DNA of 64,000 bases from a virus, in IMG/VR virus record IMGVR_UViG_3300000228_000004, positions 32,001 to 96,000 of that record; one strand, given 5' to 3'. Numbering within the stretch: the stretch's first letter is position 1; each line of letters begins with the position of its first letter. Positions 13,145 through 56,040 of the stretch are shown here, in pieces. The notes under the pieces are model-generated. The model made no database searches, had not been told where the DNA came from, and saw nothing but the letters and a program-made list of their open reading frames with translations. The translations under genes were made by a program, and so were the position numbers.

Positions 13145-13733
13145 ATAAACTTAACCGATCACCATTTATTTGAGCCGCAGTTGATTGATAATAGTGAGTA
13201 GTACCAGTTCCGTTATCACTAGAAACCCTCACATATTCATTGAAATTTTTAGCGTTCATAATCCATTTGAATTTTACCAAATAATCACCACTGGGGGTAT
13301 TTTCATAGTACCCAACCACGATATAATCAACAAGTCTATTGTATTTTAAAAAAGTGGTTAAATTCGCCCTTGTCAGTTGGTGTTCATTTGGGTTATTTGC
13401 CCCAGAAATATTGAAATTGAACCATCTATCGTTTTTATTGGAAGGCTTCACTTCTATAAAAGAACCGTCGACCTCAACATCATAAGCAAAAGAGAGAGGA
13501 TTCAACGGGTCATGCTTTTGGGTATTAAGTTTACCGCCAAGAAGTGATGCTAAAGCAACTTCTAGTATTACACCACTTTCGCAGTTTTTCATCAGAACTT
13601 CATCCGTTCTACCGTGTGTTTGACCATTTTCCTTTATCTCTTGAAACAAATTAAGTGATAATTCTGAAATATCTTCTTTAGTGACCACGATTGGTTTTCG
13701 AAGCTTAATTAAAATATTGTTGGTTAAAACCAT
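13140..13733 (-). CDS. denB: DenB (endonuclease IV)-like nuclease
   Basis: EV...C..GV..E..LA..L.G..N....D..NP..FAYDV....IEVK....D.RW....NL pattern parallels T4 DenB as recalled. Confidence 0.65.
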   Translation of the reverse strand: MVLTNNILIKLRKPIVVTKEDISELSLNLFQEIKENGQTHGRTDEVLMKNCESGVILEVALASLLGGKLNTQKHDPLNPLSFAYDVEVDGSFIEVKPSNKNDRWFNFNISGANNPNEHQLTRANLTTFLKYNRLVDYIVVGYYENTPSGDYLVKFKWIMNAKNFNEYVRVSSDNGTGTTHYYQSTAAQINGDRLSLF

Positions 13734-14410
13734 TCTGTATCCTTTGATGGTGCTGTTTCTTTAATTGAATTTACAATTTCCCAATTTTCGTTAAAATACA
13801 TTTTTACTAACGCGTCTCGACTTTCCTTGAAATCTATATGTTTTACTAGATTATTTTCAGAAGCACCCATATTATTTTTGTAATATATTAACAGGGTTTT
13901 AAAAAGTTCATTGTCCGACCACCCAGATGAATTTTCAGCCCAATCAAGACCTCTGGTTTTTCCAGTTCTCTCGTTCGTTCTTTGCAAAAACTCAGTTATA
14001 TCATCATAATAAGAAGCAATCAAGTGTACTTCATCACACCCATTGGCTTCCCAACTCGGAATATCGCCTCGCTTAGAACGGTTGTTAAAATAACCCTCCA
14101 TAAAAATAGTGGTTATTTCTGGGTATTGTTTTGCTAACGCTGGTATCTTTTCTAACCGTTGTTCCCAATTTGAAAACATTGCTGTATCAAGACTGACCCA
14201 TTGTGTACCACCTTTGGCAAATCTACCCAATACGAACCAACCATTTTCGAATAGGAATCCTATATCTTCTTGCTTAGGTTCTTTACCCTTTCTTTCAATT
14301 TTACCGCGTATCACTGAATACTCGAATTTTGAAATCAAGTAGTTCACTAAGAAATATGTTCTTGTTGATTTCCCGGAACCATTTGACCCCATATAATTGA
14401 TTAGTCTCAC
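13724..14410 (-). CDS. P-loop kinase, 5-hmdU DNA kinase-type
   Basis: MGSNGSGKSTR, VLGRF...SLD, FMEG, R..ERTG; within the modification cluster; ends TEWF. Confidence 0.7.
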   Translation of the reverse strand: MRLINYMGSNGSGKSTRTYFLVNYLISKFEYSVIRGKIERKGKEPKQEDIGFLFENGWFVLGRFAKGGTQWVSLDTAMFSNWEQRLEKIPALAKQYPEITTIFMEGYFNNRSKRGDIPSWEANGCDEVHLIASYYDDITEFLQRTNERTGKTRGLDWAENSSGWSDNELFKTLLIYYKNNMGASENNLVKHIDFKESRDALVKMYFNENWEIVNSIKETAPSKDTEWF

Positions 14411-14443
14411 TATTTATCCTTTACTTTCAAATATTATACCATA

Positions 14444-16234
14444 TCATTCTTTTGTTTGACTTAAACCAATTTGTGAAAATTCACCTTTCACGAACCTAGA
14501 AAAAACTTCTTTTATCGTTCCAGATGTATCTAATTCTAATAATTGAACCACATTTCCACCGAGATCGTTGTGTTCTTGATAAACTTTCTTCGCAGTTGAA
14601 AGTCTCTCGTATTTTTTTTCTACTGCTTTAAGTTGGTTCATTTCTTCATCAGATTTACCAGTCCTGTTTTTAATTCTTACCAGTGCTTCTTCGTAGGAAG
14701 TACTTAAAAAAAGTACCACTGGCTTCCTTAGTGTCATATTCTTTAGTGTATCAAAATATGCAGCTATTGTATCTGATGGTATTGAACCCTCTAGATACAC
14801 GCTAAAATCACTGAACTCTTTCCTGTTTAATACTTCTATGGCATACATGATTTCTTTCTTCTTGAGCGTGTCACATCCCCCAAAATTAGATTCCACTCCA
14901 TAGTTACCCAAAGAGATGAAGTTATATTTCGGAAAAACCGTGAAAATGGTTTTCTTAAAATAATTTGAATAAATTTTATACGAAAGAGAATCAGTTGCAA
15001 GCATTTGCTTGGGGATAGTTGATTTTCCGGCACCGTTCCCCCCCTTGACATACATGAAAGTTGGTTCACTTTTTTTAATTATTTCAAAAAAACTTTCATC
15101 AAATTTTTCGACTGGTGTATCAAACCAGTCATCATATAAATTAGGCGCGTAAACTTCTTTCTTAACGATGTCGAGTTCGATGTCCCCAACGAAGTTGAAT
15201 GTTTCTTCGTACTCGTAAATTTCTACTTCAGTGGGCATCTTTCTATTCAAATTTTCGGCGGAAGTTTTAAGGTCTGGTACTGACCCAACTACCCAAAACA
15301 GGGTTTTATCGTTTATCAGTTCTGGGTGATTTTTTAATAGGTATTCGTAAACTTTCGCTTCATATCTATAATGAAATGTTATGTCATCTATTTGAATACC
15401 CTTAATGGTTTTAGAATACGGTTGTTTCGTGTCGTGCCAAATGAATTCAAACATCGATGTGTCAGCACCCATTAAAGAAAGCCTTTCAAACATATAGTCA
15501 CGCTTATCGACCCCCACATTTATGAGGTGTATTCTTTTCAATGCCTTTGGCGTATCTTTATCATCACTTAACCCCAATAATATAGAAGTTGCTGAATTCG
15601 CTGAGCCGAATGGTATGATTAGATCAGTGATAAAGGTTGGTATATTCTTTACCTGATGAGCGCCAACTTTATGGAAATCAGTTACCATCTTAGCTGAATT
15701 CACAGAAAGCCTATGATCCAGAGTGATATCTCTTTCAATGGTAAATGATTTCGGGAACTTTTCCATAACTTCCCCGACCCTCTTTTGTATATTCACATTA
15801 AACCCAGAGCCACTTGATATTTCATACTTAGTACCAAACATAGTCGCGAATAAAGGAAGTTGGTGTTTATTTATAGCGTCGAAACTTGTCCCACCAGCCA
15901 CTTGAATACACCGAAGCCCGTAATGCTCTGCCATTGCGGCAGCCATAATGGTCTGTGGTGATGAGTTGACATTCGTTGCGTGTATTACTGTATCAGCACC
16001 CGTTGGTCTATTTTCAAATAAGTGAAGGAGTTGTCTACACTTAGACCCGTTCGCGGTGTTTATCCCGAAAAGAGAGAATTTATCTTCTCTCTTATAGTAC
16101 ATACCATCTGATTTCTGTTCCACTGGGGTTAGTTCCCACATATAATCTTTCCACCGTTTACCTTCCGGAAGAGGAAAGGGTACAACGGAATCTCGTAAAT
16201 CTTCATTCAGTGTAATTCTTTCTGTCATAACCAC
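14444..16234 (-). CDS. PLP-dependent enzyme (ACC-deaminase/fold II-like) fused to a C-terminal P-loop kinase
   Basis: LTPVE..YKRED...NGSKCRQ, SPQ, IPFGSANS, YEAK, FWVVG; then KGGNGAGKST, LGNY...GGCDT, LEG, RIKNRTG. Confidence 0.8.
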   Translation of the reverse strand: MVMTERITLNEDLRDSVVPFPLPEGKRWKDYMWELTPVEQKSDGMYYKREDKFSLFGINTANGSKCRQLLHLFENRPTGADTVIHATNVNSSPQTIMAAAMAEHYGLRCIQVAGGTSFDAINKHQLPLFATMFGTKYEISSGSGFNVNIQKRVGEVMEKFPKSFTIERDITLDHRLSVNSAKMVTDFHKVGAHQVKNIPTFITDLIIPFGSANSATSILLGLSDDKDTPKALKRIHLINVGVDKRDYMFERLSLMGADTSMFEFIWHDTKQPYSKTIKGIQIDDITFHYRYEAKVYEYLLKNHPELINDKTLFWVVGSVPDLKTSAENLNRKMPTEVEIYEYEETFNFVGDIELDIVKKEVYAPNLYDDWFDTPVEKFDESFFEIIKKSEPTFMYVKGGNGAGKSTIPKQMLATDSLSYKIYSNYFKKTIFTVFPKYNFISLGNYGVESNFGGCDTLKKKEIMYAIEVLNRKEFSDFSVYLEGSIPSDTIAAYFDTLKNMTLRKPVVLFLSTSYEEALVRIKNRTGKSDEEMNQLKAVEKKYERLSTAKKVYQEHNDLGGNVVQLLELDTSGTIKEVFSRFVKGEFSQIGLSQTKE

Positions 16235-17460
16235 TCACTTATTTGTTTTTCTATGGTTGGGGTGATTTTATTATTGGTTTTCTTCCCATACCATTCTTTT
16301 TCTTTTTCTTCGTGATTAATGAAGAAATTATTTTTAAAAACTGGGTTATAATTTTCCATCATAATAACTTCCCCTGTTTTCTTATACCAATTCTGTTTGA
16401 CCTTAACCAATCCTGGGTCATTCGGGTTATCTTCCATCCTAAGTTCAGAAGGAAGATATTTTCTTCTTGCTTCCCAAAAATCTTTGAAATCTATATCAGA
16501 CCCATCAATTTCTTTCCAATCCCTTGTTTCTGCTTTTTTTATTCTATCATGGAACATATCATTATAAACATTAGGATATCTTCTATTTTCCCTGTGCCAA
16601 CTCTTATAGCAACAAAGCGTGGACTCAAGGGTGAAGTAGTTCACATCTTCAAAGAACGGTTCTTGTGAAAATCTTTCCTTGGCATCTGATAATAGTACCG
16701 CGCCCTCTTTTTCTAGCCAAATCATAACTTCTTTGTTATGCCCGTTGACTATTTCTGTTGGTAAATCTTGGTTATCTTTTCTAACATCAAGATCATCCCT
16801 ACCACTCACTACACAAAGACCGTTCCGGTGTGATTTTGAACCAGATTTATCATAAATGAAGAGACTACCGCAATCTATGTTTAATCCCATAATTTTAAGA
16901 TACTCAAGGTATGAAAATGTTGAAAGCCTTCCATACATAAAAAAATCGTTAAAAACGGTATCCCAAACTTTTTCAAAATTTCCATAAACATCACCAGTAT
17001 CACAAAGGTCTGAAAAATACCCTTCTTGCGTTTTACCACCCAATAATTCTAGGTAATTTTGGTACATTTCAATGAAGTGACCCTTTTGGTATCTTCTGTC
17101 GATATCATAGTCGAGGTTTTTCCAATATTCTCTATGCCATTTTTCCATGTCTTCTATAGAAGAAGACCTTAAAGAAGGGAAATGTTTAAATAACACCCAG
17201 GAAGTGAGTGGGTTTTGTGTTGCTCCGTTTATAAACGCGAACCACAATCTTGTCTCAAAATCCCAATCATGTTTCTTAGCCAAGAAAGGCATCACATAAT
17301 ATACTGCCCCTGGATGAGATTTATACTTTAAATGGAACCCATAAAAATTAAGGAAAACTTCTCTTCTATATTCAGGCAACCGAAAATCAACGCCCTCTGC
17401 TAATTCCCTTTCTTCGACCCCATTTATGTGACAAAATCTACCCAATACCATTGATATCAC
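16225..17460 (-). CDS. Amino acid:DNA transferase (aGPT-Pplase2-like, DNA glycosylase fold)
   Basis: HPGAVY, DIDRRYQK, YGRLSTFSYLE, GSKSHRNGL, YFTLESTLCCYK, RRYPNVYNDM; ends ISEWL. Confidence 0.85.
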   Translation of the reverse strand: MISMVLGRFCHINGVEERELAEGVDFRLPEYRREVFLNFYGFHLKYKSHPGAVYYVMPFLAKKHDWDFETRLWFAFINGATQNPLTSWVLFKHFPSLRSSSIEDMEKWHREYWKNLDYDIDRRYQKGHFIEMYQNYLELLGGKTQEGYFSDLCDTGDVYGNFEKVWDTVFNDFFMYGRLSTFSYLEYLKIMGLNIDCGSLFIYDKSGSKSHRNGLCVVSGRDDLDVRKDNQDLPTEIVNGHNKEVMIWLEKEGAVLLSDAKERFSQEPFFEDVNYFTLESTLCCYKSWHRENRRYPNVYNDMFHDRIKKAETRDWKEIDGSDIDFKDFWEARRKYLPSELRMEDNPNDPGLVKVKQNWYKKTGEVIMMENYNPVFKNNFFINHEEKEKEWYGKKTNNKITPTIEKQISEWL

Positions 17461-17983
17461 CTTTTATGAATTCATAAATTTCCACCCATTCAACATAAGG
17501 GAATTCGTCACTGGGCGAGTTAAGGAAACTTTTAATTTGAAAAACTTTAGAATGAGGGGAAACATCCCTACAATATTTCTTATAGTCATCAACGAAATAA
17601 TCACATCTCACGAATTTCTTATCAGAAGTGGACACAAACCCCTTAGAGTATGGGAAATTTCTTCTTATGAAATGTCGTTTCGATTCTTCATGCTCTGGGA
17701 TACAACTTGATACGAATATTATACCAATACCGAGTTCGTGGATTTTTTGTAAGTATATTTTAGCATGTTCAAATGCTTCTAATTTATCATATAACTTAGG
17801 GTCTCTCCAAAATTTCATTGGGTCATTATGATTTTTCATCAAGGTTTCTAGGTCATTATTCTCAGATGAAAGTGACCCTAAATCATCCCCAGTCAAATCT
17901 TTGTACCAATTTACCCAAGGGGTAACTGAGTCAACCACTGTTAAATCAACATCGACCGCGATTATTTTATTCATTTCAGACAT
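17438..17983 (-). CDS. HAD-family 5'(3')-deoxyribonucleotidase
   Basis: DVDLTVVD motif I, FVSS, K, FVDD. Confidence 0.75.
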   Translation of the reverse strand: MSEMNKIIAVDVDLTVVDSVTPWVNWYKDLTGDDLGSLSSENNDLETLMKNHNDPMKFWRDPKLYDKLEAFEHAKIYLQKIHELGIGIIFVSSCIPEHEESKRHFIRRNFPYSKGFVSTSDKKFVRCDYFVDDYKKYCRDVSPHSKVFQIKSFLNSPSDEFPYVEWVEIYEFIKGDINGIG

Positions 17984-18106: not shown

Positions 18107-18748
18107 TTATTTGAATAATTTGGTGTTATCTTCGTTACCATTTTCATCAAATTTTGCATATGCATCAGCTGATTCAGTATAACCGCCGTCAACTCTTTCG
18201 TGGTTCAGTTTATTCTTCCCCATATATAATTGATACATATATTCAGGTGTCATATTCGCGTACCACCCAAGTGAATTTATCAGGTACACGAACGCGGTCA
18301 ATGATTCTTCCCTTTGGTCTAAAAGAGAAGATAATGAAAATGAATTGATATCTAACATCAATCCACTAGATAAATTTTCCCCATTTTCATCAAATTCCGC
18401 TTTAGAGAACTCCTCGTGGCAAGAAATATAATCACCTAACAATTGTTCTATATTAGACCCGTAATTCATAATCAATACACTGATCGCAAAGTGGATAATA
18501 TCAACTGCTTCTACTTGCATGTTATTAAAGTCATTCTCTAGGAAAATTTTCCACCACTTCCAACCAGTTCCTGTATCACCAGTCCTAGGGGAACTTTCCA
18601 ATAGTTCCCCTAACTCAGCCATCATTGCTGAAATAAAGTGTGATTTTGGGATAATCTCAGCCCAATCTTCCCCTGAATACTTCTCATTTAATAATACCTG
18701 TGCGCTCAAAATTTCACTAAATTCATTTACTTTCATTATGTTAAACAT
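18107..18748 (-). CDS. Dimeric all-alpha dUTPase (possibly dUTP/dTTPase)
   Basis: ELGELLES, WKWWK, VEAVDIIHF, Y..KN.LNHER..GGY. Confidence 0.8.
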   Translation of the reverse strand: MFNIMKVNEFSEILSAQVLLNEKYSGEDWAEIIPKSHFISAMMAELGELLESSPRTGDTGTGWKWWKIFLENDFNNMQVEAVDIIHFAISVLIMNYGSNIEQLLGDYISCHEEFSKAEFDENGENLSSGLMLDINSFSLSSLLDQREESLTAFVYLINSLGWYANMTPEYMYQLYMGKNKLNHERVDGGYTESADAYAKFDENGNEDNTKLFK

Positions 18749-19206: not shown

Positions 19207-20388
19207 TCAATGCGTTTTCAACCACTCATCGGTTTGTTTTATTTCAGTATCTGAATCATTTGGATTTCGTTTATACCTATTTCTTGGTCTTCCAGTTTTC
19301 TGTTTCACAGAGACTATTTTTTGTAATTCACAGAAACTGTTTTCACACATCATAACATTTAATTTTCGATCTTCCTCTGGTAAATGGTCAAAAAGTTCAC
19401 TATAATCAATGTGAAGTCCGCGTTTTTCCCATTCAGTCTCTATATTATCCCTGACCCAGAATAATGCTTCTTCGTGGGTCATACCGTCCCTGTCTTCCAT
19501 TAAAAGGTCTATCCCTCTATCACATCCTGGCCCAGACACTACGAATTCATTTTCACTGAACTTGAATTCTGGTATATATGTTAAGTCAACAAATACTTGG
19601 TACGCCAAAAACCCAGCCAATCCTGGGATTTCTCTCAAAATATTGAATACTTCCTCTTGAGTATTCGCCCCTTGAACTCGAGTGGATATATCCGTGTTTT
19701 TAACCCATTGTATCATGTGTATCATCCTAGTTGGCATATTTTTTTCTACACCAACTATTTCATACCCTTCATTTTCTTTAATATACCCCTTTGCTTCTTT
19801 CCAGGTCATTTCTTCTGTGTCAATATGACCTTCTTTTCTTACCTCAACCACCATACCCGAATTCGTGCATTCGTACTCTAATGTTTTAGGGAAAGCCCAA
19901 CTTGCTTTGAGCCCACCAGTGTTAAATGCTGGTGTGAAAAATGCATATTTCGGATTTTCTTTAGCATATTCGATAAATATTTCACGGAACGCGTCTATGT
20001 CTAAATTGTCAAAATCTTCTATGTAACCACCAAATAATTCTGATGTACTAGACTTGTTATATGTTCTGAAGAAGATAGAATTGAGGATCTTTACTTCTAG
20101 TGTTAGATTCGGGTTTGTGCTAATATTCTTAATCAACCATTTAGACTCTCTATCGAGTTCACGCCTTACATTAGTGAATCTATAATTCTTGAACACTTCA
20201 TCGTCTGTCCATTCTTGTTGTGGTAATTTTTCAATTTCTTTTCTTTTGTGTATATTGTGTCTTTCAGACATGAACAAATTATGATATCTTAGCACCTCTT
20301 CATTTAAAATCGGTTTCGCGTTTTTTATCTTTTCGATATCAACACCACAATATCTAATATCGGCTTCCTTTGTTTTCATTAAAACCAT
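19207..20388 (-). CDS. aGPT-Pplase1 / 5-hmdU DNA kinase helical-domain protein
   Basis: ERH.I...K...WTDD.VF..YRFTNVRRELDR.S.W, GFLAYQ..VDL.Y, SGPG...G, CENSFCE; ends DEWLKTH. Confidence 0.85.
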   Translation of the reverse strand: MVLMKTKEADIRYCGVDIEKIKNAKPILNEEVLRYHNLFMSERHNIHKRKEIEKLPQQEWTDDEVFKNYRFTNVRRELDRESKWLIKNISTNPNLTLEVKILNSIFFRTYNKSSTSELFGGYIEDFDNLDIDAFREIFIEYAKENPKYAFFTPAFNTGGLKASWAFPKTLEYECTNSGMVVEVRKEGHIDTEEMTWKEAKGYIKENEGYEIVGVEKNMPTRMIHMIQWVKNTDISTRVQGANTQEEVFNILREIPGLAGFLAYQVFVDLTYIPEFKFSENEFVVSGPGCDRGIDLLMEDRDGMTHEEALFWVRDNIETEWEKRGLHIDYSELFDHLPEEDRKLNVMMCENSFCELQKIVSVKQKTGRPRNRYKRNPNDSDTEIKQTDEWLKTH

Positions 20389-21548
20389 TCCTCAAGTTTA
20401 AAATTTTGCTTCATATCATAACCAACTGCTTCTAACATAAGGTTAAGTGGTGATATGAAATAATCTTCCCACATTTTACCCCTATCAACATATTTTTCAA
20501 GCCCAGAGTCTGTTATAAAGTCAGAATCTAGAAACCCGATTATATCATCACCTAAAATGTTGGGTTTCTTTAAAATACAATATTTTATTTTATCACTGTC
20601 TGTTATTTTAGGGTATTTGGATAACCCAGTTCTTTCTAAAAAAATATTGTAATTCATTGCCGCCCTTACATTCATTGGCGCAGTTAAAATTTTTCCATTT
20701 TTCTTAGTGGTGAATTTACCTATACCCCCCTTATAATCCAAAGACCCGATACCAGAAACCCTGCATATGTCACCCAATGGTGCTTTGTAGAATTTCTCTT
20801 CTATCTCAGATATAGAAGCAATCGTTTCTTTTGCATCGTTATCTAGAATTACATTCACCATATCTTTGAGATATTTCCTACAAAAGGGCGGAGTAGAAGA
20901 TCGTACTATCTCCAACCCAGTGACCGCCAATTTAGGGTCATCGACAAGTATAGACCCTTCGTCCCAAACGGCACGCAAAGCATATTTTTTCTTTGCAACA
21001 AACATCCCTTTATCGGCAATTTTTTCAAGTTTTGCCCCGATGGGCTTGGCACTAAATGCGTTGAAATTGTCTGAGAAAGAATCTATGTATTCTTGGACCC
21101 ATACATCGAGGTATTTATGATCAAAATTAACAAGTTTATCAAGTATTTCGTGATTATTAGCGGTGTCGAATTTTTTTACTAATTCATTAAGAGTAAAATA
21201 CACAGAGTCGGTGTCACCATAAACTACAAAGTCAATATTGGTATTAAGAACACTTCGTAACTTCCCATTTACATAATTCGCCAATCCTTGTATAAATATC
21301 CTACCGTTCCCAGTGATACTTGCAGCAACATCTCGATTGAATAGTAAAAAGTGTATATTTGCTAGAGCACCATATAATGAGTTCATCGAAATCTTTAGAG
21401 CCATCTGATATACATCGAAATAAGCAATTCTAGTGTCTATATATTTCATATCTGCCGTTAAACCACTAACATCCAAATCGTTGATTTTATCAATCGTCAT
21501 TGAACCGTCTTCTATACCATCGTAAATTTCTTCTATTGTCATGTTCAC
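20379..21548 (-). CDS. 43: Family B DNA polymerase, C-terminal fragment (fingers/palm/thumb)
   Basis: QMALKISMNSLYGA, YGDTDS, KKKYA, GLEIVRSSTP; ends KLEEWF. Confidence 0.93.
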   Translation of the reverse strand: MNMTIEEIYDGIEDGSMTIDKINDLDVSGLTADMKYIDTRIAYFDVYQMALKISMNSLYGALANIHFLLFNRDVAASITGNGRIFIQGLANYVNGKLRSVLNTNIDFVVYGDTDSVYFTLNELVKKFDTANNHEILDKLVNFDHKYLDVWVQEYIDSFSDNFNAFSAKPIGAKLEKIADKGMFVAKKKYALRAVWDEGSILVDDPKLAVTGLEIVRSSTPPFCRKYLKDMVNVILDNDAKETIASISEIEEKFYKAPLGDICRVSGIGSLDYKGGIGKFTTKKNGKILTAPMNVRAAMNYNIFLERTGLSKYPKITDSDKIKYCILKKPNILGDDIIGFLDSDFITDSGLEKYVDRGKMWEDYFISPLNLMLEAVGYDMKQNFKLEEWF

Positions 21549-23359: not shown

Positions 23360-23514
23360 TCAACTTCCTTTCTTGTTTCTTCTATCTTACATATAAAAAA
23401 TGCGTTACCATTACCTTCCTCTCCTGTATAAAAACCACTTGTGATAAAATAATTACGAGTTTCACTGTCGTATATAACCCACTTCCACTTAGTCACCGTT
23501 TTTGGTTTTATGCG
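22965..23514. repeat. 104-bp direct repeat (22965-23068 and 23411-23514) in the 3' parts of two paralogues
   Basis: Only 2 mismatches by manual alignment. Confidence 0.85.
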
Positions 23515-25135: not shown

Positions 25136-26401
25136 TTAAACAGTCTTCAATTTAGCTTGTAATGCTTTATACATTAACATTTTTCTCTTTACTTCTTTCC
25201 TAGTAGAATAAATGTTCCCTACTATTTCGGGTATTATACCCTCATTGTCACGCCTAAAGAAAGCATTCATGCCAAAAGCAACATCATATTTATGCGTAAC
25301 TTCTCTAATTTCAGCAAGGCTATCAGGATTAAGGTACACTTCTTCATGCTCGTGTGTGTGATACTTAGCTCGTAAATTTTTCAATTCTTGAGGCAACTCA
25401 TATTCATTTATATATGTTTCTGGTGACATATTAAAAGCGCGCATACCAAGTAACGGGTACATTGAGTTGACGTCGACTGAAACCAACCAATTATGTTTAC
25501 CCTTTTGTGGTTGTCGAACATAACCACCAATAATTGTTTTATCTAGGCGGCTATGTCTGTCGAACGGCATTACAAGTCCCTCTTTCATAGCAAGGTTAGT
25601 CAGATATTGCCCCCAAGGTTTAACAGTGCCGAAGGAGTCATCCATATTAATACCCATCATTGAAGATAAAATTTTCATAAGCTCTATTAACTTCAGTTTA
25701 TCCTCTAGTTTTTTCAGGAGCAAAACATCTTGTATAGAATATTCTATGAATAAGTCTTTATCCCCGTGATAGAAATCTACTATATCATCAAACTTCCCAT
25801 AGTCAACCTTACCCTCACCAACACCAAGTTCCACTTTAACGATGTTGTCCAATGCGTATGACACTTGTGGCTTAGTTACGAACTTTTTGTATGCTTTCAT
25901 CATATCGATTAGATAAATTCCTTCCCAGTCATAGTTCATCCCTTCCATCGTTTTTATCTCTTTAACTTTATTAATTGGGGATAATCTTCTATAATTCACC
26001 CCGTCCAATTTCATTGCTCTGTTAGTGATATATGGGAAGTCGAATGAATCACCATTCCAAGCAGTTATAACCGTCGGTTTTAAATTTTCAAGTAATTTAA
26101 TAAAATCTTTAAAAAGTTCTTTTTCATCATAGTAGTGTTTGAATATCAAATTATCATATTTCTTAAATTTGGTTTCGTCGACCATTTTGTCTAAACTTAG
26201 AATTATTATCTTGTTGCTATAACTGTCGTATATCTGTATTTGTGAAACTGTCTTTTCAGCAAGCTGAGGATCTGGGAATGACTTATCTGCGTAATAACAT
26301 GAATTTTTAAATAAAACCCATTCATTCAATTCTTCATCGAATACTTCATAGTCAGTATAATCTTCAGCAAGAATCTCCGACATTTTCATTATTTTTTCCA
26401 T
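25136..26401 (-). CDS. 43: Family B DNA polymerase, middle fragment (rest of the 3'-5' exonuclease, region II, first fingers helix)
   Basis: FPDP, TAWNGDSFDFPY (ExoII), YSIQDV (ExoIII), GGYV, SVDVNSMYP, NMSPET, R...K..M. Confidence 0.93.
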   Translation of the reverse strand: MEKIMKMSEILAEDYTDYEVFDEELNEWVLFKNSCYYADKSFPDPQLAEKTVSQIQIYDSYSNKIIILSLDKMVDETKFKKYDNLIFKHYYDEKELFKDFIKLLENLKPTVITAWNGDSFDFPYITNRAMKLDGVNYRRLSPINKVKEIKTMEGMNYDWEGIYLIDMMKAYKKFVTKPQVSYALDNIVKVELGVGEGKVDYGKFDDIVDFYHGDKDLFIEYSIQDVLLLKKLEDKLKLIELMKILSSMMGINMDDSFGTVKPWGQYLTNLAMKEGLVMPFDRHSRLDKTIIGGYVRQPQKGKHNWLVSVDVNSMYPLLGMRAFNMSPETYINEYELPQELKNLRAKYHTHEHEEVYLNPDSLAEIREVTHKYDVAFGMNAFFRRDNEGIIPEIVGNIYSTRKEVKRKMLMYKALQAKLKTV

Positions 26402-27058: not shown

Positions 27059-27098
27059 AAATACTCCTTTTAAGTAATTAATGCTCGATATCTAAAAA

Positions 27099-27512
27099 CT
27101 AACTTTTCACCCTAACTCGTATTTCATAGTCTCTTCCGTACTTATTTTCTTCAACAGTTTCTATATCGAAAAACCATATTCGCATATCGTTGTTTTTTCC
27201 ATTATTGAAAAAATTATCTCTTATGTGTTTGTACTCTGGTCTCTGTCCGCCGTATAGTTCTTTACCGAGTGAATCCATCAACCCCTTAAACTCTTTTTCT
27301 TCTTTTGAAGAAGTAAATTCCCTTTTAGACAATTTCACGGATGGGTCTAGTATATATGAAAATTCACCATTTTTATTTTTTTCAAAGTATTCGTATTTTG
27401 GTGATATTTCTTCTATTCTTACTTGGTTCGTGTCAGTGTTCCTTGTTCTGCAAAAGTATTTAAAATCACTTTTCCATACTTTTTCATATTGTTCATTTTC
27501 GTAATCTCTCAT
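27099..27512 (-). CDS. 43: Family B DNA polymerase, N-terminal fragment ending just after the ExoI motif
   Basis: Y..IRDNF...MRIWFFDIET then 16 residues and a stop; lies downstream of gp41 and one small ORF. Confidence 0.8.
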   Translation of the reverse strand: MRDYENEQYEKVWKSDFKYFCRTRNTDTNQVRIEEISPKYEYFEKNKNGEFSYILDPSVKLSKREFTSSKEEKEFKGLMDSLGKELYGGQRPEYKHIRDNFFNNGKNNDMRIWFFDIETVEENKYGRDYEIRVRVKS

Positions 27513-27788
27513 TATATACCACCGAATAGTTTTCTTAATATGATCTGATAATTCCTTCCCTTTCTAGTACTATAATCTATCGCAGTGACGACCACCATAG
27601 AATAAGGGACTGAAAGGTTTGGATGTGATATCCAAGAGCTATATAATTCACCCAAACCAAATTTTATAGAAGCATCTTTTATTTGTGAAAGATAAAAATT
27701 TATTTTTCTAAAATTAAACATAACAAATAACCAGCCCATCCTAGAAGAAATTTTCCTAAAAAACATTATTTTCTCTTTCATACTAATC

Positions 27789-29147
27789 CTAATTGAAATT
27801 TATTACTGAAGTATCCATATCTCGTTCAGTCGCTTTTTGTAAAACATGTGTATTCGCTTTCGCCACTTGTTGCTCGACACCATCTTCATCAAGGTCACTG
27901 AACCTGACAGTAGAAAAATCCGTTTCAACTAAATGCGATGAAAGCATACCTGTGTTCCTATTCTTTAAGAACTTAATTAGGCTTTGATTCATTTCCCTTA
28001 ATTGTGGGTTAGAAAGTAACGCGATTACATTGTCAGCGGTCTGTATAACACCAAGTGAGTCAGCGATAGAGTCCAACCCTGACTCTAAGTTATCAAAACT
28101 CCCTCTGTTTAACTGGGCAGCAGTTAGTGCGATTATATCCTCTTTCTTGCTAAAACCATGTAATTCTTCCGCGATAGACTTGTAATAGGCATACCCACCA
28201 GCCGTACCTAAAGAAACCCTTGTTGACGCCATTAAGCCTATGTAATCAATACATATTAAGTCTGGCGTGAAACCATCCTTTGACTTCAATTCATTTAAAA
28301 GTGCTTTTAATGTCAATGTACTGAAAGTACCAGATGGAAAATCCTTAATGACCAAATTCCCAGCTATTTCTGAAATGGATTTCATCCTACTTTCAAATTC
28401 TTTTCTATCTAATTTACCCAAATCGTTAGCAGGGTGGTTCAAAAGATTAGCGTCTATCCTTCTAGCGATTTCCATATCAGTCATTTCCAGTGAAATGAAT
28501 AAAACATTCTTCCCAGATAAGTAAGCCGAACTTGCCGCCGACATAAGGATCGCACTTTTACCGCCGTGTGAAGGTGCTACGATTAAATTCAATGTTTTAG
28601 ACCTCAACCCACTACCAAGTGCCAAATCTACCGACGGGAGCCCGATACTAAGCCCAGATATTCTTTGAGTATAGTAATCATATCTTTCTAGTGTGGCTTT
28701 TTCTTCCTTGTATTTCATCCCTATATCATAGTCAAATGAAATACTCAGTGCTTTCTCTATCATACCAATAATAGGTTCGAATGGCTGGTCATTTTCTATT
28801 AAATCGGCTGATTTAAAAATTGCTTCAGATAATTCTTCTTTTTGGATATATTTTTCAGTTTGGTCAATTAAAAATTCTTTATTTTCAACAGATGGTTCAA
28901 GAATAACTTCTTTGAATTGCCCAATAACTTTAAGTTTGATATTCTCACTCACCTCACCTGAATTTTTAATAAAAATACCAAGTTCTTTAGGGTTTGGGGT
29001 AGCATCGTATTCTTTGTTATATTGTACTAGAGCCTTAAATATCTCAGAATTTTCTAAGTTCGAAAAATGTGAACTCTTTAAGTGCGGGAAAACCTTTGCG
29101 AAATATTCTGGGTCAACTATCAAATTTTTCAGTATTACACTTTCCAC
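27789..29147 (-). CDS. 41: gp41 replicative helicase (DnaB-like)
   Basis: APSHGGKS, ISLEM, RRIDAN, IDYIGLM, AEEL, TAAQLNR, KNR. Confidence 0.92.
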   Translation of the reverse strand: MESVILKNLIVDPEYFAKVFPHLKSSHFSNLENSEIFKALVQYNKEYDATPNPKELGIFIKNSGEVSENIKLKVIGQFKEVILEPSVENKEFLIDQTEKYIQKEELSEAIFKSADLIENDQPFEPIIGMIEKALSISFDYDIGMKYKEEKATLERYDYYTQRISGLSIGLPSVDLALGSGLRSKTLNLIVAPSHGGKSAILMSAASSAYLSGKNVLFISLEMTDMEIARRIDANLLNHPANDLGKLDRKEFESRMKSISEIAGNLVIKDFPSGTFSTLTLKALLNELKSKDGFTPDLICIDYIGLMASTRVSLGTAGGYAYYKSIAEELHGFSKKEDIIALTAAQLNRGSFDNLESGLDSIADSLGVIQTADNVIALLSNPQLREMNQSLIKFLKNRNTGMLSSHLVETDFSTVRFSDLDEDGVEQQVAKANTHVLQKATERDMDTSVINFN

Positions 29148-29269: not shown

Positions 29270-30080
29270 CTAAAACCACTCAGAAACTAACTCTAAATTT
29301 TCACTGAAAAATAAACATTCCAAATTTCCATTTTTTTGTTTGTTGGTTGAAGGAGCAGTTGAATTCATTTCCCTTATTTTTTCGAATTTTAAATCACCAT
29401 TTATATTGTTCAGTATATCTGTATAAACATAATCAAAATCCCCTTTTTTTAAAAAGTCAATGAATTCGCGTAAATCGTTTTCAGAAAACCCACTATAAGA
29501 TGAAGCTTGTGAAAAATAAGGGGATCTAAAAAATACAGCGCATCGGTGTTCCCCATCAGGGTTTTATATGATAGATTAGTAATCTTTGTCTTTCTTAATA
29601 CATCTTTCACTGAATTGAAATCCGTTTCATTTAAAGTGTAAAATCTACCCCCGAAGCTTTGATTCATACCGTTTGGTCCAAATCTTAAAAATGAATTAAT
29701 ACAAGAATTTGTTAAAAAATGTAGATATACCCCTTCCTCTTCTACCCCAGTCTTCCAGAAATTTTGATTGAACCAATCCCTGAAAGCATAATAAGAATTT
29801 TTGTCTTCTTTTATATATCCCCAAATTTCTCTAGTACGAACCGTTGTTCTTGGGTATATTCTTTGAAATTTATTATTTTAAATGTTTCGTACATTCTATA
29901 TATATTTTCGTCTAAATCATTTACCGAATATTCATCAAATGATTTATCCAAATTAAACAAAACCGCACCTGAACCGACGAAAGGTTCTATATAAATTTCC
30001 TTTTTCGTATTATTGATGTATTCATTTATGATACCGACAAACTTAGATTTACTGCCGGAATACCTAAAAAATTTTAACAT
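29270..30080 (-). pseudogene. dam: Dam-family adenine methyltransferase broken by a 2-bp insertion (~29815) and a 1-bp deletion in the DPPY codons (~29520)
   Basis: RYSGSK, EPFVGSGAV, ND. Restoring the indels gives ...FLRFGPNG...YFLDPPY...ELVSEWF*. May be a sequencing artefact rather than a pseudogene. Confidence 0.75.
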
Positions 30081-30095: not shown

Positions 30096-31076
30096 TTAAA
30101 ACGGGGTGTTTATGTGGTCTTCAATAATTTCAATGATCCCCTCTATTATACCCAAGTGGTCATCCCTCAACATATTATCATCAATAGTAATACCGAAAGC
30201 ATGATCATGTCCACCACTTGATATTACCATCGGGTTTTGTCTCACATACCACAGGATAGTATCTTTCAATTGCTTAGCGTCGGTGTTATCTACCCTATGT
30301 GAAAATCGTATAGAAATATTCTTACCTTTTGTCTCATAAGGTAAAACATAATAATCGAAATCTGGGTAGTCATTTTGCCAAAATGACTTATGTTTATCAC
30401 AAAAAGCAAGTAAAATAGAATTTTCTTCGTCAAACACCGCTATATTGTTTTCTATAAGTGATTTGAAATACCTATCTTTATCTTCCAAAATTTTAACATA
30501 TATATCTTTGAACATTTTAGGTATTTTATATTGGTTTCTTATGATGTTTGATTTGAATGCCGAAAGCTTCAATTCCCAGAATACTGAATTTAAAAACCAA
30601 CCTATTTTGAAATTAGTTGGGTCTTCAAACTCTTTGTATATATCAAATGCATTAATAAACCCAACCAACTTTCCTAAATCTTCATTTACTGAGTGCGTAA
30701 ATTCATAAGTCAATAGGGTAGCTGACTTCCCTATCTCGTGCTTACAGTAAACATTAGGGAAACTCGCCAATTCATTAAATGTTTCTAATACATCACCCTC
30801 ATATGGGTGATGGTCTATGAATATAATTTTAATATGTGGGTGCCCTTCCGCTACTCTCATCAATTCTAGAAAAGCATCTTTATCGAAACTTAAATCAGTC
30901 ACGAATAGGGTTTTAGTTAAATGATTGATGTCCAAGTCTATTGATTTCAGTGTATCTGTTACTGACCCATACGATACATGAAAGGTATCCATATCCCCGA
31001 ATTTTTCTCTTAGTACTATGTTCGACCCAGCGCCATCAAGATCATTATGCGTCAAGTTAATTCTTTCTTTCATCAA
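30096..31076 (-). CDS. DHH-family phosphoesterase/exonuclease
   Basis: HNDLDG, TDLS, IDHH, GGH motifs. Confidence 0.85.
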   Translation of the reverse strand: MMKERINLTHNDLDGAGSNIVLREKFGDMDTFHVSYGSVTDTLKSIDLDINHLTKTLFVTDLSFDKDAFLELMRVAEGHPHIKIIFIDHHPYEGDVLETFNELASFPNVYCKHEIGKSATLLTYEFTHSVNEDLGKLVGFINAFDIYKEFEDPTNFKIGWFLNSVFWELKLSAFKSNIIRNQYKIPKMFKDIYVKILEDKDRYFKSLIENNIAVFDEENSILLAFCDKHKSFWQNDYPDFDYYVLPYETKGKNISIRFSHRVDNTDAKQLKDTILWYVRQNPMVISSGGHDHAFGITIDDNMLRDDHLGIIEGIIEIIEDHINTPF

Positions 31077-31510
31077 ACTTTACCCTTTGAATATTTTTTG
31101 TTAATTCTTTCTATTTCGATTTCAGGCATCATTTCTATATATTCTAACGCAGTACTTTCATTACACCTATAATATCTCATTACATTATCGATGGAACCGC
31201 TTTCGAATTTTTTCTTCCCTTTTTCAAACGGTATAAAACTTTTCGAGACCATGTTTCGTATTATATCCCATTGCTTATCAACTGGTATAGTTTTAGTCGT
31301 GAACATCAAAGCAAAATCTAAAGTATTCTCGAATCTAGCCAATAATTTATGAAACATAAATTCACTTATTTTCTCTTTTTCTTTTTGGGGGGGTTTTATT
31401 TTTTTATCAATACTAGCATTCATTACGCTCCACATAGAAGTTTCTTTTGGCGGCATATACTCTGGTATACTGGTTTCAGTATGGGTTATACCCCATTCAT
31501 CAGCCAACAT
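31073..31510 (-). CDS. 62: gp62 clamp-loader small subunit
   Basis: SEFM....LA, V.RYY..N...A.EYI pattern; replication operon context. Confidence 0.65.
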   Translation of the reverse strand: MLADEWGITHTETSIPEYMPPKETSMWSVMNASIDKKIKPPQKEKEKISEFMFHKLLARFENTLDFALMFTTKTIPVDKQWDIIRNMVSKSFIPFEKGKKKFESGSIDNVMRYYRCNESTALEYIEMMPEIEIERINKKYSKGKV

Positions 31511-31957: not shown

Positions 31958-32005
31958 GATCTCTCCCAATCCTCTGCATATGACTCCAAAGTACATTGTA
32001 TGAAT

Positions 32006-32353: not shown

Positions 32354-32362
32354 TTCATTCCC

Positions 32363-32920
32363 TTAAAATTCAAAATCTTCATCATCTATTTCGCTATGCA
32401 TAAAAGTATATTTTTCCTCAAACCTCAACGCTACTGCTGGGTCTGATAATATTGGCTTCAAAAATTCCTTCCAATTATTCCATATTTCCTTTTCTCGCCA
32501 TTTTTTGTCACCTTCTACACTAGCGCGTGAATAATACCCCATAGTCGGTTTTGTCACGAAACCGAATTCCAATAAATCATCTAAGATTCCATATGCTGGG
32601 TGTATCCCTCCGTCATATTTTATGAGGTATCTAAGCTTCGTCAGTTCTTTACAGAACCTAGACTTTTTTGTCTGGGCTAATATTAATGCGCCAGTTATTT
32701 CCGTACTTGAATCAGTATCTTTCGCTTTTGCTTTTGAAGATCCAAGTACAATCGAGCTTGAAGCGAAGTATAACCCTCTACCACCGCCAATCGCAAGTGG
32801 ATCGAACTGGTTCATGGAATTATGTGAAATCAGCCCATTTCCTAATATATAATTATGACAAGGCGTTTCAATGTCATATACAGTTTCATGACCTTTTATG
32901 TTTACGCTTTTAACTTTCAT
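32363..32920 (-). CDS. uvsX: Split-intein C fragment (34 aa, 32819-32920) plus UvsX C-terminal half
   Basis: VYDIET..HNYILGNGLISHN|S, then L2-loop AIGGGRG, KSRF, GGI..AYG; has its own AGGAG RBS. Confidence 0.92.
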   Translation of the reverse strand: MKVKSVNIKGHETVYDIETPCHNYILGNGLISHNSMNQFDPLAIGGGRGLYFASSSIVLGSSKAKAKDTDSSTEITGALILAQTKKSRFCKELTKLRYLIKYDGGIHPAYGILDDLLEFGFVTKPTMGYYSRASVEGDKKWREKEIWNNWKEFLKPILSDPAVALRFEEKYTFMHSEIDDEDFEF

Positions 32921-33011
32921 CTATTTCTCCTAATTTAATTTTCCACCCATAGAATTTACTTCTTTTGGAATATGGTTCTCTTTTCACACCCCGATTAAAT
33001 TTGAATTACCA

Positions 33012-33902
33012 TCATCCAATGTCAGTATATAACCTCTGGTCGTCATATAATTGGATATCATCATCAGTGACTAATTCACTCACTGGTACCCAAATTTGTT
33101 TTCCATCTCGCTCAACTAAAAACTTATGGTTTTCCGTGAATTCCAATATTTCACCATTTTCCATCTCTATTGAATACACTGGGGCATCATCGTATTGGAA
33201 AATATCTTGGACTTCTTGATAACCTTCCGTCGTTAATACTTCTTCACCTATCTTAATGTCAGCTAAAGACTTCCTTCCTTCTTTAGTCTTAACGGTCATT
33301 TTATTTGTCCCGCAGTCATATACCTGATTGATAACAAACACTGTCATCCCCAAACCAGTAAGGAGTTTCGCGAAAGTATTTTTCTTTTTTGATACGGTAA
33401 AGTCGGCTGCATCATTACCAGTAATCGCGTCATTCACCGATTTAGAAGTGACTAAACCACCCCAAGAATCTATTACAAGTAAAACATTCCCTCTTTCTTC
33501 TTTACTCAATTCTTTAGTGATCGCCATGACCTGTTGTTGAACATCTTCTATTTGGTTACTTTGAATAACGAGGAGTCTCCCGAGGTCAATCCCGACAGAA
33601 TTAGCAAAATCGAAGTCGAATGCCATTTCAGAATCGATGTAAATGACAATGAACTCATCATTTATTTTTTGTGAATTTTTAGATACTTTCAACCCAACAA
33701 AACTTTTTCCTAAACTGCTTGGCGCCGCGATTTGTGATATTTTTCCGACTGGTATACCGCCATTCAATCTTCCGCTAAAGAGGATATTCAGTACCAAAGA
33801 ACCAGTACTGATGAACTTTTGCTCTCTTTCTATATTTTGGTACAGGTTTTCCTTTATCACTTTGTTTTTTGATAACTTCCCTATCATACTATTTTCTTTC
33901 AT
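33012..33902 (-). CDS. uvsX: UvsX/RecA recombinase N-terminal half plus split-intein N fragment (100 aa, 33015-33314)
   Basis: STGS..LN..SG, APSSLGKS, IDSE, VIDSWG, VINQVYD|CGTN..., FTENHKF. Confidence 0.92.
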   Translation of the reverse strand: MKENSMIGKLSKNKVIKENLYQNIEREQKFISTGSLVLNILFSGRLNGGIPVGKISQIAAPSSLGKSFVGLKVSKNSQKINDEFIVIYIDSEMAFDFDFANSVGIDLGRLLVIQSNQIEDVQQQVMAITKELSKEERGNVLLVIDSWGGLVTSKSVNDAITGNDAADFTVSKKKNTFAKLLTGLGMTVFVINQVYDCGTNKMTVKTKEGRKSLADIKIGEEVLTTEGYQEVQDIFQYDDAPVYSIEMENGEILEFTENHKFLVERDGKQIWVPVSELVTDDDIQLYDDQRLYTDIG

Positions 33903-34324: not shown

Positions 34325-34366
34325 GCTCCCCCCTTTCCTTTAATTATACCGCGTCATACTTTACAT

Positions 34367-35317
34367 TTACTTAAACTTTATCGTGGTATCACTTATAATC
34401 TTCACCGCGAACGCGAGTAATGGGATATGTTTGTTCTTTGCCCTTTGTGAATAGTCTTGGTAATCAGCTAACTCTAGAATAACCATGGGTTGGGCTTCTG
34501 GTTTGAAAATATTGTCAAGATTTTTATATACATAAGTGTAAAAATTATCTGGTATTAAAATTTCATTAACTACATCTTTCACTATCTTGAATTTCCTGTG
34601 TAACATCGCATCAATTAAAGAAGCGAAAATATCATCAGTTTTTGCAATATTTTCGAACTCTAATTTACCGGAACTAGAATGTTTTTGTATGAACATCAAC
34701 ATATTCCTAGTTGATGGGTACATAGTAGTCACCACTTTCATTATATCCTGTTTATCGTAGGTAATATCTTCATTTTCAAGTACAGAACACAACCGCTTGA
34801 AAATTTGAGTACCGAGTTCTTTCTTGTTCTGGCTATAAATATCATCCAAATTGAATATTTGTAATCTATCCAATAACGGGGGCATAAGTTTATCTATATA
34901 GTTCCCAGTAAACATAAATCTGTTATTTTTAGCGTACTGTTCTAGGTCAGAACGAAGCGTTGACTGAGCAGCAGTCGTCAGGTAATCTGACTCATCTATA
35001 CAAGTAATTTTATGTTTACCTAGAACCGACTTCCCTCTTGAGAACTGACCAATATCATTCCTCATCACATCAATCCCGTTGTCCTTAGAACCGTTAATCC
35101 ACAAAGTTTCAACACCAAGTTGTTTAGTAATGACATTCATTATAGTACTTTTACCAGTTCCAGGTGAAAGCCCGAAAATCCCAATATTTGGTATTTCTCC
35201 AGAGTTCAACCAAGTTCTTATAATAGCCTTCTCTTTTCCTGGGAAAATTAAGTCATCTATGTTCTCAGGTCTATATTTTTCAGCCCATATATATTGTTCG
35301 TCGTTAGTTACCATCAT
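34367..35317 (-). CDS. 44: gp44 clamp-loader AAA+ subunit
   Basis: WAEKYRP, SPGTGKS, INGS, IDESD, AQ..LR. Confidence 0.92.
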   Translation of the reverse strand: MMVTNDEQYIWAEKYRPENIDDLIFPGKEKAIIRTWLNSGEIPNIGIFGLSPGTGKSTIMNVITKQLGVETLWINGSKDNGIDVMRNDIGQFSRGKSVLGKHKITCIDESDYLTTAAQSTLRSDLEQYAKNNRFMFTGNYIDKLMPPLLDRLQIFNLDDIYSQNKKELGTQIFKRLCSVLENEDITYDKQDIMKVVTTMYPSTRNMLMFIQKHSSSGKLEFENIAKTDDIFASLIDAMLHRKFKIVKDVVNEILIPDNFYTYVYKNLDNIFKPEAQPMVILELADYQDYSQRAKNKHIPLLAFAVKIISDTTIKFK

Positions 35318-35322
35318 TTTTC

Positions 35323-35880
35323 CTATAATTCAATTTGTGTTAAAAGGGAATTGATCCTAATTATTGATTCTCCTTTAAATGTCAAGAAAAGCATCATGAA
35401 TTTAAGCTTCCTCAATACATGCCCAAAAGTTCTCCCTAGATCGGCTTGGTCGTTATCGTATTTCCTAAAGAACCACGCGGTGTAAAATTTAATATTTCCG
35501 TCCATAAATTCCTTTAAAACTATTTGTTGCGTTATGTTACTTCCGTATTTTTCCCTAAAAAATTTTACATCTGCGCCGATAAATTCTTGATAATTGAGAA
35601 TTATGTGTTTAAACATAGTTATTTCTTTTAGTTCCAACTCCCTTAGTTCAGCCAACATACCCCTGAAAGAAGAAGGTGTCTTAGAAAACATTATATAAAC
35701 GCAAGCCAAGACAAAGGTTTCTTTGGTCTTTCCCTCCCATTTTTGGTAAGGGAAGTATGACTTTGAATTTTCTTTAGTGTTAAATTTATGATTTGAATGT
35801 AGTAACCTATAATCTAATTGACTATCATAAGTAACAAATATCCCTTGGGCTATATCATATTGTTGGCCAAATTGTAGCAT
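35323..35880 (-). CDS. Possible gp59 helicase loader
   Basis: Size and position downstream of gp33 as in T4; weak sequence cues only. Confidence 0.4.
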   Translation of the reverse strand: MLQFGQQYDIAQGIFVTYDSQLDYRLLHSNHKFNTKENSKSYFPYQKWEGKTKETFVLACVYIMFSKTPSSFRGMLAELRELELKEITMFKHIILNYQEFIGADVKFFREKYGSNITQQIVLKEFMDGNIKFYTAWFFRKYDNDQADLGRTFGHVLRKLKFMMLFLTFKGESIIRINSLLTQIEL

Positions 35881-36059
35881 TACTTTAACCTAAATTCTTT
35901 TATAGTAACTACTAATCCGTGTTCAGTTAAATCATCAGATGCAATATATGCATCTTCTATATCCTTGAATATTTCTATGATATTTCTATCTATAATTATA
36001 GCGTAAACCATTCCATTTTCCTTTATTCCTTATTATACCATACTTCTATAAATTAGAAC

Positions 36060-36308
36060 TTAAACCCACTCTTCTATGTTTAAAAAAGATCTTTTGGTCG
36101 TTTGAAACTTAGCTTCGTTGTGAAACTTTAGGTCTTCTTCAAATGTAGTCCTGAAAGATTTGTCTTTCTTTAACATTTCACCTACTGTGTCTATATCTTT
36201 ATCCAATTCTTCGCAATAAGTTGTTATCACTTCCAAGATTGAAATACCAGATAACTTTCTCTGTTTCTTGAACAGTAGAATATCTTGGTAAATACTAGAA
36301 AATTCCAT
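36060..36308 (-). CDS. 33: gp33 late-transcription co-activator
   Basis: S.LE.IT.YCEE pattern; ends NIEEWV where T4 gp33 has its clamp-binding tail. Confidence 0.7.
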   Translation of the reverse strand: MEFSSIYQDILLFKKQRKLSGISILEVITTYCEELDKDIDTVGEMLKKDKSFRTTFEEDLKFHNEAKFQTTKRSFLNIEEWV

Positions 36309-56033: not shown

Positions 56034-56040
56034 ATATATT

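Follow-up and report, generated by a model that had tools for sequence, protein, structure and literature searches.

A polymerase-type C-terminal tail on thymidine-hypermodification enzymes of an uncultured T4-like phage, a predicted tether to the sliding clamp

Several proteins of phage T4 bind the sliding clamp gp45 through a short shared peptide. The C-terminal motifs of the DNA polymerase gp43, of the late-transcription coactivator gp33, and of gp55 are highly similar and interchangeable, and they bind gp45 (PMC2988020); in the T4 record, these proteins end in SLDFLFG, TLDFLL, and SLDFLYEAND, respectively. T4 DNA ligase binds gp45 via an internal LDFLF loop (PMC6212786), and the clamp "tool belt" is established, as are clamp peptides at C termini (PMC2988020, PMC6212786). 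Here we describe a C-terminal tail, E-W-[F/L/V], that is shared by replication and DNA modification proteins of an uncultured T4-like phage, IMG/VR record IMGVR_UViG_3300000228_000004 (referred to as G000; 110,523 bp, linear, and approximately 71% complete according to CheckV). The window is the whole stretch of 64,000 nucleotides that was analyzed (bases 32001-96000 of the record), and positions refer to it unless the genome is named. As in T4 and RB69, the peptide ends the polymerase and gp33 after a variable linker, occurs on several putative clients, and has an acidic-aromatic-aliphatic core, and G000 encodes a gp45-type clamp together with a gp44/62 loader. Unlike in T4 and RB69, the motif is E-W-[FLV] with an invariant Trp and not L-D-F-L, and the putative clients additionally include a 5-hydroxymethyldeoxyuridine (5-hmdU) DNA kinase, aGPT-Pplase1, an amino acid:DNA transferase, Dam-type methyltransferases, and RNase H.

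Clients of PCNA, including DNMT1 and FEN1, dock on that clamp via a short, often C-terminal, peptide known as the PIP box. The G000 tails would follow the same tool-belt logic, with modification and maintenance enzymes and a flap endonuclease on the clamp and with DNA marking coupled to replication, whereas the clamp family (gp45 trimer), the motif, and the chemistry (5-hmdU hypermodification) differ. The FEN1-PCNA interaction is cited in PMC6212786. A precedent from T4 is alpha-glucosyltransferase, which is reported to bind gp45 (Sommer et al. 2004) and copurifies with it, as confirmed by pull-down in PMC13216743. This enzyme is likewise a post-replicative phage DNA modifier that binds the phage sliding clamp. 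It differs in that it ends in EQFDIITK with no polymerase-like LDFL tail and acts on 5-hydroxymethylcytosine, whereas in G000 a whole pathway bears the polymerase-type tail and acts on thymidine (5-hmdU).

The thymidine-hypermodification pathway of phages ViI, M6, PhiW-14, and SP10 (Lee et al., PMC8989533) resembles that of G000 in its HMUD kinases, aGPT-Pplase1, aGPT-Pplase2, and thymidylate synthase (TS)-like hydroxymethylase. In a search by term, that paper made no mention of the replisome, processivity, or the replication fork, and its sole use of "C-terminal" was unrelated. We found no description in the literature of a clamp link for thymidine hypermodification or aGPT-Pplase, nor of shared tails on the ViI polymerase, gp160, gp243, and gp247. 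The first-pass annotation of the window had likewise known of no account of clamp coupling for thymidine hypermodification; a precedent for a clamp-bound modifier does exist in the T4 alpha-glucosyltransferase reported to bind gp45 (PMC13216743).

Six G000 proteins end exactly in E-W-[F/L/V], compared with approximately 0.1 to 0.2 expected by chance. They are the C-terminal half of the family B polymerase (PolB), a gp33-like protein, RNase H/FEN, an HMUD2 kinase, an aGPT-Pplase2-type transferase, and Dam. aGPT-Pplase1 is a further carrier, with the motif three residues before its end. The six tails listed in the first-pass annotation were all present, and all lie on the minus strand; RNase H/FEN was found by a scan of the whole record. 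The carriers, together with the untailed half of the polymerase and a second kinase without a terminal tail, are as follows.

13724..14410, minus strand: HMUD2-type 5-hmdU DNA kinase, 228 residues, ending in SKDTEWF (tail 13727-13735); Pfam HMUD2 at 2e-5, 24.3 bits versus a cut-off of 25.
14444..16234, minus strand: HMUD1 5-hmdU DNA kinase fused to an uncharacterized N-terminal domain, 596 residues; Pfam HMUDK_HMUD1 at 6.5e-25 (residues 391-552); no terminal tail.
16225..17460, minus strand: aGPT-Pplase2-type amino acid:DNA transferase, 411 residues, ending in EKQISEWL (tail 16228-16236); phrog_3271 at 2e-77.
19207..20388, minus strand: aGPT-Pplase1 (HMUDK_hel, ViI gp160 homolog), ending in QTDEWLKTH (DEWL at 19219-19230); Pfam HMUDK_hel at 1e-60.
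20379..21548, minus strand: C-terminal half of PolB (gp43 homolog), ending in FKLEEWF (tail codons 20382-20390); Pfam DNA_pol_B at 8e-20.
25136..26401, minus strand: N-terminal (exonuclease) half of PolB, no tail; Pfam DNA_pol_B_exo1 at 9e-20, BLASTP match to T4 gp43 residues 120-487.
29270..30080, minus strand: Dam-type (D12) N6-adenine DNA methyltransferase in three collinear pieces and three frames, the last ending in LELVSEWF (tail 29273-29281, stop at 29270).
36060..36308, minus strand: gp33-like late-transcription coactivator, 82 residues, ending in LNIEEWV (tail 36063-36071).
Genome 27068-28123, just outside the window: T4-type RNase H/FEN, ending in SLSEWV.

The enrichment is well beyond chance. 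Terminal [ED]W[FLVIM] occurred in 5 called open reading frames (ORFs) of G000 versus 0.10 expected (Poisson P = 7e-8; 5 or 6 of 165 ORFs). When all terminal dipeptides were ranked without regard to motif, EW came first in G000 (n = 6, Bonferroni-corrected P of 1.6e-4) and also in G001, one of the relatives described below.

Two of the carriers are less simple than first described. The KLEEWF end assigned to the polymerase is present, but PolB is split, and the carrier is no more than its C-terminal half. In BLASTP, this half aligned up to the last residue with residues 553-897 of the 898 in T4 gp43, and its tail occupies a position equivalent to that of SLDFLFG in gp43. The two halves are approximately 3.6 kb apart, and the gap holds three paralogous ORFs of approximately 150 residues (22904-24266, with ends of the type CKIEET) alongside further small ORFs. 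A split polymerase also occurs in the relatives G001 and G002, in Vibrio phage 1.244.A, and in LIMEstone1, and the C-terminal half is interrupted once more in G003. The LVSEWF end of the rebuilt Dam was also confirmed, and an intact Dam with the same tail occurs in G003 (Pfam MethyltransfD12 at 2e-23, ending in VSEWF), but the G000 gene consists of the three pieces noted above. Residues 1-89, 75-191, and 183-269 of the G003 protein matched G000 in frames 2, 1, and 3, respectively (tblastn, 74-76% identity). One of the two frameshifts lies at a C run inside the DPPY motif (FLDP/PYF, with the slash at the break); possible explanations are a sequencing error, a recently formed pseudogene, and phase switching.

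The tailed modification enzymes belong to a thymidine-hypermodification cluster that comprises a TS-like hydroxymethylase, dUTPase, NT5C, the HMUD1 and HMUD2 5-hmdU DNA kinases, aGPT-Pplase1 (HMUDK_hel), and a homolog of ViI gp247. Judged from gene content, the predicted 5-hmdU pathway set is complete by type: a TS-like dUMP hydroxymethylase (phrog thymidylate synthase, 1e-80), 5-hmdU DNA kinase(s) (HMUDK_HMUD1, 6.5e-25; HMUD2, 2e-5), aGPT-Pplase1 (HMUDK_hel, 1e-60), and an aGPT-Pplase2/ADDT transferase (ViI gp247, 3e-28). Identity was 40% between aGPT-Pplase1 and ViI gp160 and 29% between the transferase and ViI gp247 (BLASTP). The tail was absent from the nucleotide-level enzymes, namely, the TS homolog (10947-12041), NT5C (17438-17983), and dUTPase (18107-18748), as the first-pass annotation had stated for the TS homolog and the dUTPase. 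The 596-residue HMUD1 fusion contains an internal copy (NLYDDWFDT, with the motif at residues 369-372, window positions 15119-15130) at the domain junction, comparable to the internal loop of T4 ligase. In G002, the N-terminal part of this fusion is a separate protein of 350 residues that ends in INEWIGE.

Tail conservation was examined in three relatives with 72-78% polymerase identity to G000 (G001-G003) and one with 39% (G004). G001-G003 keep [ED]W[FLIM] on DNA-acting proteins: the polymerase, aGPT-Pplase1, a transferase or ADDT-family protein, an HMUD2 kinase or kinase fusion, RNase H, and two D12-class Dam-type adenine methyltransferases. The aGPT-Pplase1 orthologs bear the motif at the exact terminus (SIDEWL in G001 and G002, LNEWF in G003). 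The HMUD2 orthologs end in MDEWI (G002) and MDEWL (a fusion in G001), the transferase ortholog of G002 ends in LGEWI, and an ADDT protein of G001 ends in MLEWF.

The same residue stands out in the gp33-like family. An exhaustive HMMER search recovered 17 representatives. Aligned with the query (18 sequences in all, 23-43% identity to it), they left just two invariant columns, F52 and the tail Trp (W81). The G000 protein matched Pfam Trans_coact at an E value of 1.2e-3, below the cut-off, and 8 of the 18 family members match this model (best, 2.4e-5). Its gene lies in the order gp46/47, gp33, gp59-like, as in T4. One homologous-protein search with the gp33-like protein returned only the query itself. 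We assign the 82-residue protein as a putative gp33 homolog with moderate confidence.

We compared nine Ackermannviridae genomes with the same hypermodification enzymes (ViI, LIMEstone1, 0507-KN2-1, phiMAM1, Bue1, K445, 1.244.A, GR28A, and phiA8-29). Two of the ViI enzymes have been shown by experiment to act as a 5-hmdU DNA kinase (gp243) and as a serine:DNA transferase (gp247) (PMC8989533, Table 1). The C-terminal tails in ViI and three Vibrio phages are as follows.

ViI: polymerase, RRVNLLSMMGKKG; gp160, SVNLLDRLKKPE; gp243, SVSLLGLMRKA; gp247, SVNLMSLLKR; small Cys-rich protein, KVNLLSLMRK.
Vibrio phages K445 and 1.244.A: terminal [KR][KR]LW on the polymerase, aGPT-Pplase1, HMUD2 kinase, gp247-type transferase, and small Cys-rich protein.
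Vibrio phage GR28A: polymerase, RRLF; HMUD2, NRLF; gp160, gp247-type, and small Cys-rich proteins not found.

The tails of LIMEstone1, 0507-KN2-1, phiMAM1, and Bue1 follow the ViI type and depart from it only slightly. The [KR][KR]LW tail of K445 and 1.244.A was found on nothing else among approximately 210 ORFs (P = 1e-10 to 1e-11), and P values across the Ackermannviridae genomes ranged from 1e-6 to 1e-11. In G004, the polymerase ends in EEIDIW, gp33 ends in IQIDEW, and a 131-residue protein with an N6-methylase domain (a methyltransferase fragment) ends in ELEEIW. The tail is thus specific to the lineage: EW[FLIM] in G000-G003, [DE]xW in G004, VNLLxxM[KR]K in enterobacterial Ackermannviridae, and [KR][KR]LW or RLF in Vibrio phages. 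Polymerase and enzyme tails agree in 9 of the 10 lineages examined, the exception being phiA8-29. The tail is confined to DNA-acting enzymes; the nucleotide-pool enzymes and the HMUD1 (gp67-type) kinase are never tailed. Tails that dock on one co-evolving phage protein should change together in all of its clients, and such joint change is what we observed. We regard this co-variation, read from the sequences, as the strongest evidence for a putative shared tail partner.

Two proteins outside the known enzyme set have the tail type of their own polymerase and are candidate clamp clients. The small Cys-rich protein of phrog_4789 (70-99 residues) occurs in ViI (30355-30567), K445 (56023-56322), and 1.244.A (60010-60306), with ends of KVNLLSLMRK in ViI, KTK[KR]LW in the Vibrio phages, and KVDLLSLMMGK in LIMEstone1. 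This Cys-rich protein was considered as a gp33, an identity that could not be shown. In G004, a 536-residue phrog_10773 protein (100275-101885) ends in VELDEW, the tail type of the polymerase and gp33 of that phage. A transferase homolog in mycobacteriophage Fortunato lies beside ParB and terminase genes and was uninformative with regard to clamps.

G000 has approximately 34% G+C, and its minus strand holds nearly all genes. Genes for replication and recombination of the T4 type lie within the window, namely, gp46/gp47, the gp33-like protein, a gp59-like protein, gp44, gp62, UvsX/RecA with a Hint module, a DnaB-type helicase, and PolB in two halves. The clamp, its loader, and the helicase-loading protein are as follows.

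Genome 29302-30006, just upstream of the window: gp45-type clamp, 234 residues, beside gp32 and RNase H.
31073..31510, minus strand: gp62-type clamp-loader small subunit; phrog_225 ("clamp loader of DNA polymerase") at 6e-14.
34367..35317, minus strand: gp44-type clamp-loader large subunit (AAA+); Pfam AAA, Rad17, and Gp44_lid.
35323..35880, minus strand: gp59-like helicase-loading protein, 185 residues, all-helical; AlphaFold2 model with a pLDDT of 82, best Foldseek match T4 gp59 (1c1k, probability 0.99, TM 0.57).

The clamp was identified from an ESM Atlas comparison, from homology by way of G004, and from an hhalign match that is weak. In the ESM Atlas, its feature score was 0.97, with TM scores of 0.82-0.86 to gp45-slide_C clusters; its homolog in G004 (BLASTP, 1.8e-7) matched a gp45 hidden Markov model at 8e-17; and hhalign aligned its N-terminal domain with T4 gp45 (E = 2e-4). 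The Pfam gp45 models PF02916 and PF09116 gave no match in G000, and the small gp45 hidden Markov model matched the G004 homolog and not the G000 protein. The single-chain AlphaFold2 model of the clamp, built from a three-sequence alignment, had a pLDDT of 33. The 185-residue ORF at 35323-35880 was rejected as a clamp; it is all-helical, and its best match is T4 gp59. It lies between gp33 and gp44 with no Pfam match, and the T4 order 33-59 is kept. In the UvsX/RecA homolog, a Hint/intein-splicing module (33012-33902) is followed by a separate 185-residue ORF (32363-32920) that ends in EIDDEDFEF. The G002 ortholog of this region is one protein of 348 residues ending in INDEDFEGL, and the arrangement is probably an intein or a split gene.

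The first-pass annotation had read E-W-[F/L/V] as a clamp-binding motif. That reading is supported by the conservation of the tails, by the co-variation, by the encoded clamp and loader, by the rejection of a gene-overlap artifact (see below), and by RNase H/FEN, a third classical clamp-associated enzyme type with a tail in G000. The tail is therefore probably a tether to the sliding clamp, as predicted from these combined analyses, and homology with the tails of T4 gp43 and gp33 supports, but does not prove, that the partner would be the clamp. Sequence comparison further supports EW[FLV] as a putative new variant of the phage clamp-binding peptide, on client classes (thymidine-hypermodification enzymes and Dam) that are undocumented in the literature searched.

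Several observations weigh against this reading. E-W-[FLV] is only loosely like D-F-L, what they have in common being the acidic-aromatic-aliphatic order; the ViI-type core V-N-L-L is nearer to T4 L-D-F-L. The gp33-like protein falls below the Pfam cut-off, and the gp33-like profiles aligned weakly and not significantly with T4 gp33 in hhalign. gp55 was not found in G000 (approximately 71% complete) or G001 by searches with phrog_234, phrog_12791, Sigma70_r2, and phmmer using the G004 gp55, and the gp55 proteins of G004 and 1.244.A end without a tail (SIRRLKD and NKKGEE, respectively). The ligase, proposed in the first-pass annotation as a place to look for the motif, lacks it in G000, whether terminal or internal, and RNase H of G004 has no tail. 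In Aeromonas phage phiA8-29 (26974-33913), the three hypermodification enzymes end in Vibrio-like K[KR]LW and the polymerase ends in ViI-like VNVLKFFK; either one clamp accepts both motif types interchangeably or the phage acquired the modification module by transfer. Finally, a 2026 study of T4 alpha-glucosyltransferase found that the level of modification (glucosylation) does not depend chiefly on clamp binding (PMC13216743).

Shared C termini could also be a by-product of stop/start overlaps and ribosome-binding sites at gene ends. Three G000 tails sit 10 nucleotides inside the longest downstream ORF, the GA-ATG-G of the tail includes a start codon, and GAGGAA in the polymerase tail doubles as a Shine-Dalgarno sequence 9 nucleotides upstream of the TAATG start of aGPT-Pplase1. 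Effects of this kind are possible in these phages. In G004, approximately 50 of 196 ORFs, mostly of 60-100 residues and in tandem with ATGA overlaps (e.g., 62185-64933 and 84898-99454), end in [YFH]-P-E-[YL]-[YFL]-L, as in YPEYYL, and the dipeptide EY occupies positions -4/-3 in 28 ORFs (P of approximately 4e-33). Either these ends form a large C-terminal tag that is independent of protein family, or they reflect a start/stop signal at the nucleotide level, and they caution that common C termini can arise in other ways. Gene overlap as an explanation of the G000 tail is nevertheless largely refuted, and we consider it hardly credible. Tails without an overlapping downstream start occur on RNase H, gp33, Dam (G003), aGPT-Pplase1 (G001 and G003), and the polymerase (G003), in agreement with the earlier caveat that the gp33 and Dam tails avoid overlap. 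Codons for the Glu and for the last residue differ among tails, as do the stop codons, and because of this and of the carriers without an overlapping start, the constraint is placed on the peptide. Furthermore, Trp, a rare residue, does not vary among the 18 distant gp33-like proteins, the carriers are limited to DNA-acting enzymes, and quite different motifs co-vary in Ackermannviridae. A C-terminal tag for degradation or stability, by which the turnover of a set of early or middle proteins would be timed, would fit the fact that all carriers are replication-phase proteins, and short hydrophobic C termini can serve as protease signals. However, the motif differs sharply among phages of related hosts (VNLLxxMRK, KRLW, and RLF), which fits a phage-encoded co-evolving partner and not a conserved host protease, and the T4 polymerase and gp33 tails are clamp epitopes (PMC2988020). 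Such a tag is very improbable.

A more serious competitor, although still an unlikely one, is that the tail docks on another phage hub, such as gp32 (the single-stranded DNA-binding protein), gp59, or a replication-factory scaffold, or acts as an import signal for a replication compartment. Co-variation within genomes indicates a shared co-evolving partner and not its identity, and the tail-less gp55 and ligase, the phiA8-29 polymerase tail that is unlike those of its enzymes, and the very basic Vibrio-phage tail, which might touch DNA, could all be accommodated in this way. However, the ViI-type VNLL resembles T4 LDFL, and we know of no hub other than the clamp that binds gp33. Within the T4 family, gp45 is the one known common partner of the polymerase and gp33 C termini (PMC2988020).

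Under the clamp-tether model, E-W-[F/L/V] at the extreme C terminus would be this lineage's version of the T4-family clamp-binding peptide ([ST]-L-D-F-L-[FYL]). The gp44/62 loader would place the gp45-type clamp on primer-template junctions, and the clamp would remain on the new duplex DNA. The polymerase, gp33, RNase H/FEN, HMUD2, aGPT-Pplase1, the transferase, and Dam would then dock their tails in a hydrophobic pocket of the clamp face. The conversion of 5-hmdU to phosphorylated 5-hmdU and to the amino-acid adduct, together with adenine methylation, would be concentrated on newly replicated phage DNA and slide along it. We infer that tethering would raise the speed or completeness of modification. 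A tentative extension, which we regard as possible and no better than that, is an assembly line in T4-like phages and Ackermannviridae in which trimeric gp45 carries the 5-hmdU kinase, aGPT-Pplase1, and the transferase together or in quick exchange. Hypermodification and Dam methylation might then be processive behind the fork, and tail-clamp affinity might help to set the density and the strand or timing pattern of the modification.

Thymidine hypermodification is post-replicative. To our knowledge, the question of how hypermodification enzymes reach new phage DNA fast enough to protect it has not been addressed so far, and a polymerase-type tail on the kinase, aGPT-Pplase1, and the transferase would provide a concrete mechanism for finding it. 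The tails on ViI gp160 and on the biochemically characterized gp243 and gp247 open the way to direct experiments. EW[FLV], [KR][KR]LW, and RLF would be new variants of the phage clamp-binding motif, with a client list widened to Dam-type methyltransferases, and the tail may serve as a simple genomic rule for spotting DNA-acting proteins that lack an assigned function. If the assembly line exists, replication, late transcription, and DNA masking would be linked through the "mobile enhancer" clamp, and the rule that a modifier copies the tail of its own polymerase would become a predictor of new DNA-modifying enzymes and small clamp clients, such as the phrog_4789 protein.

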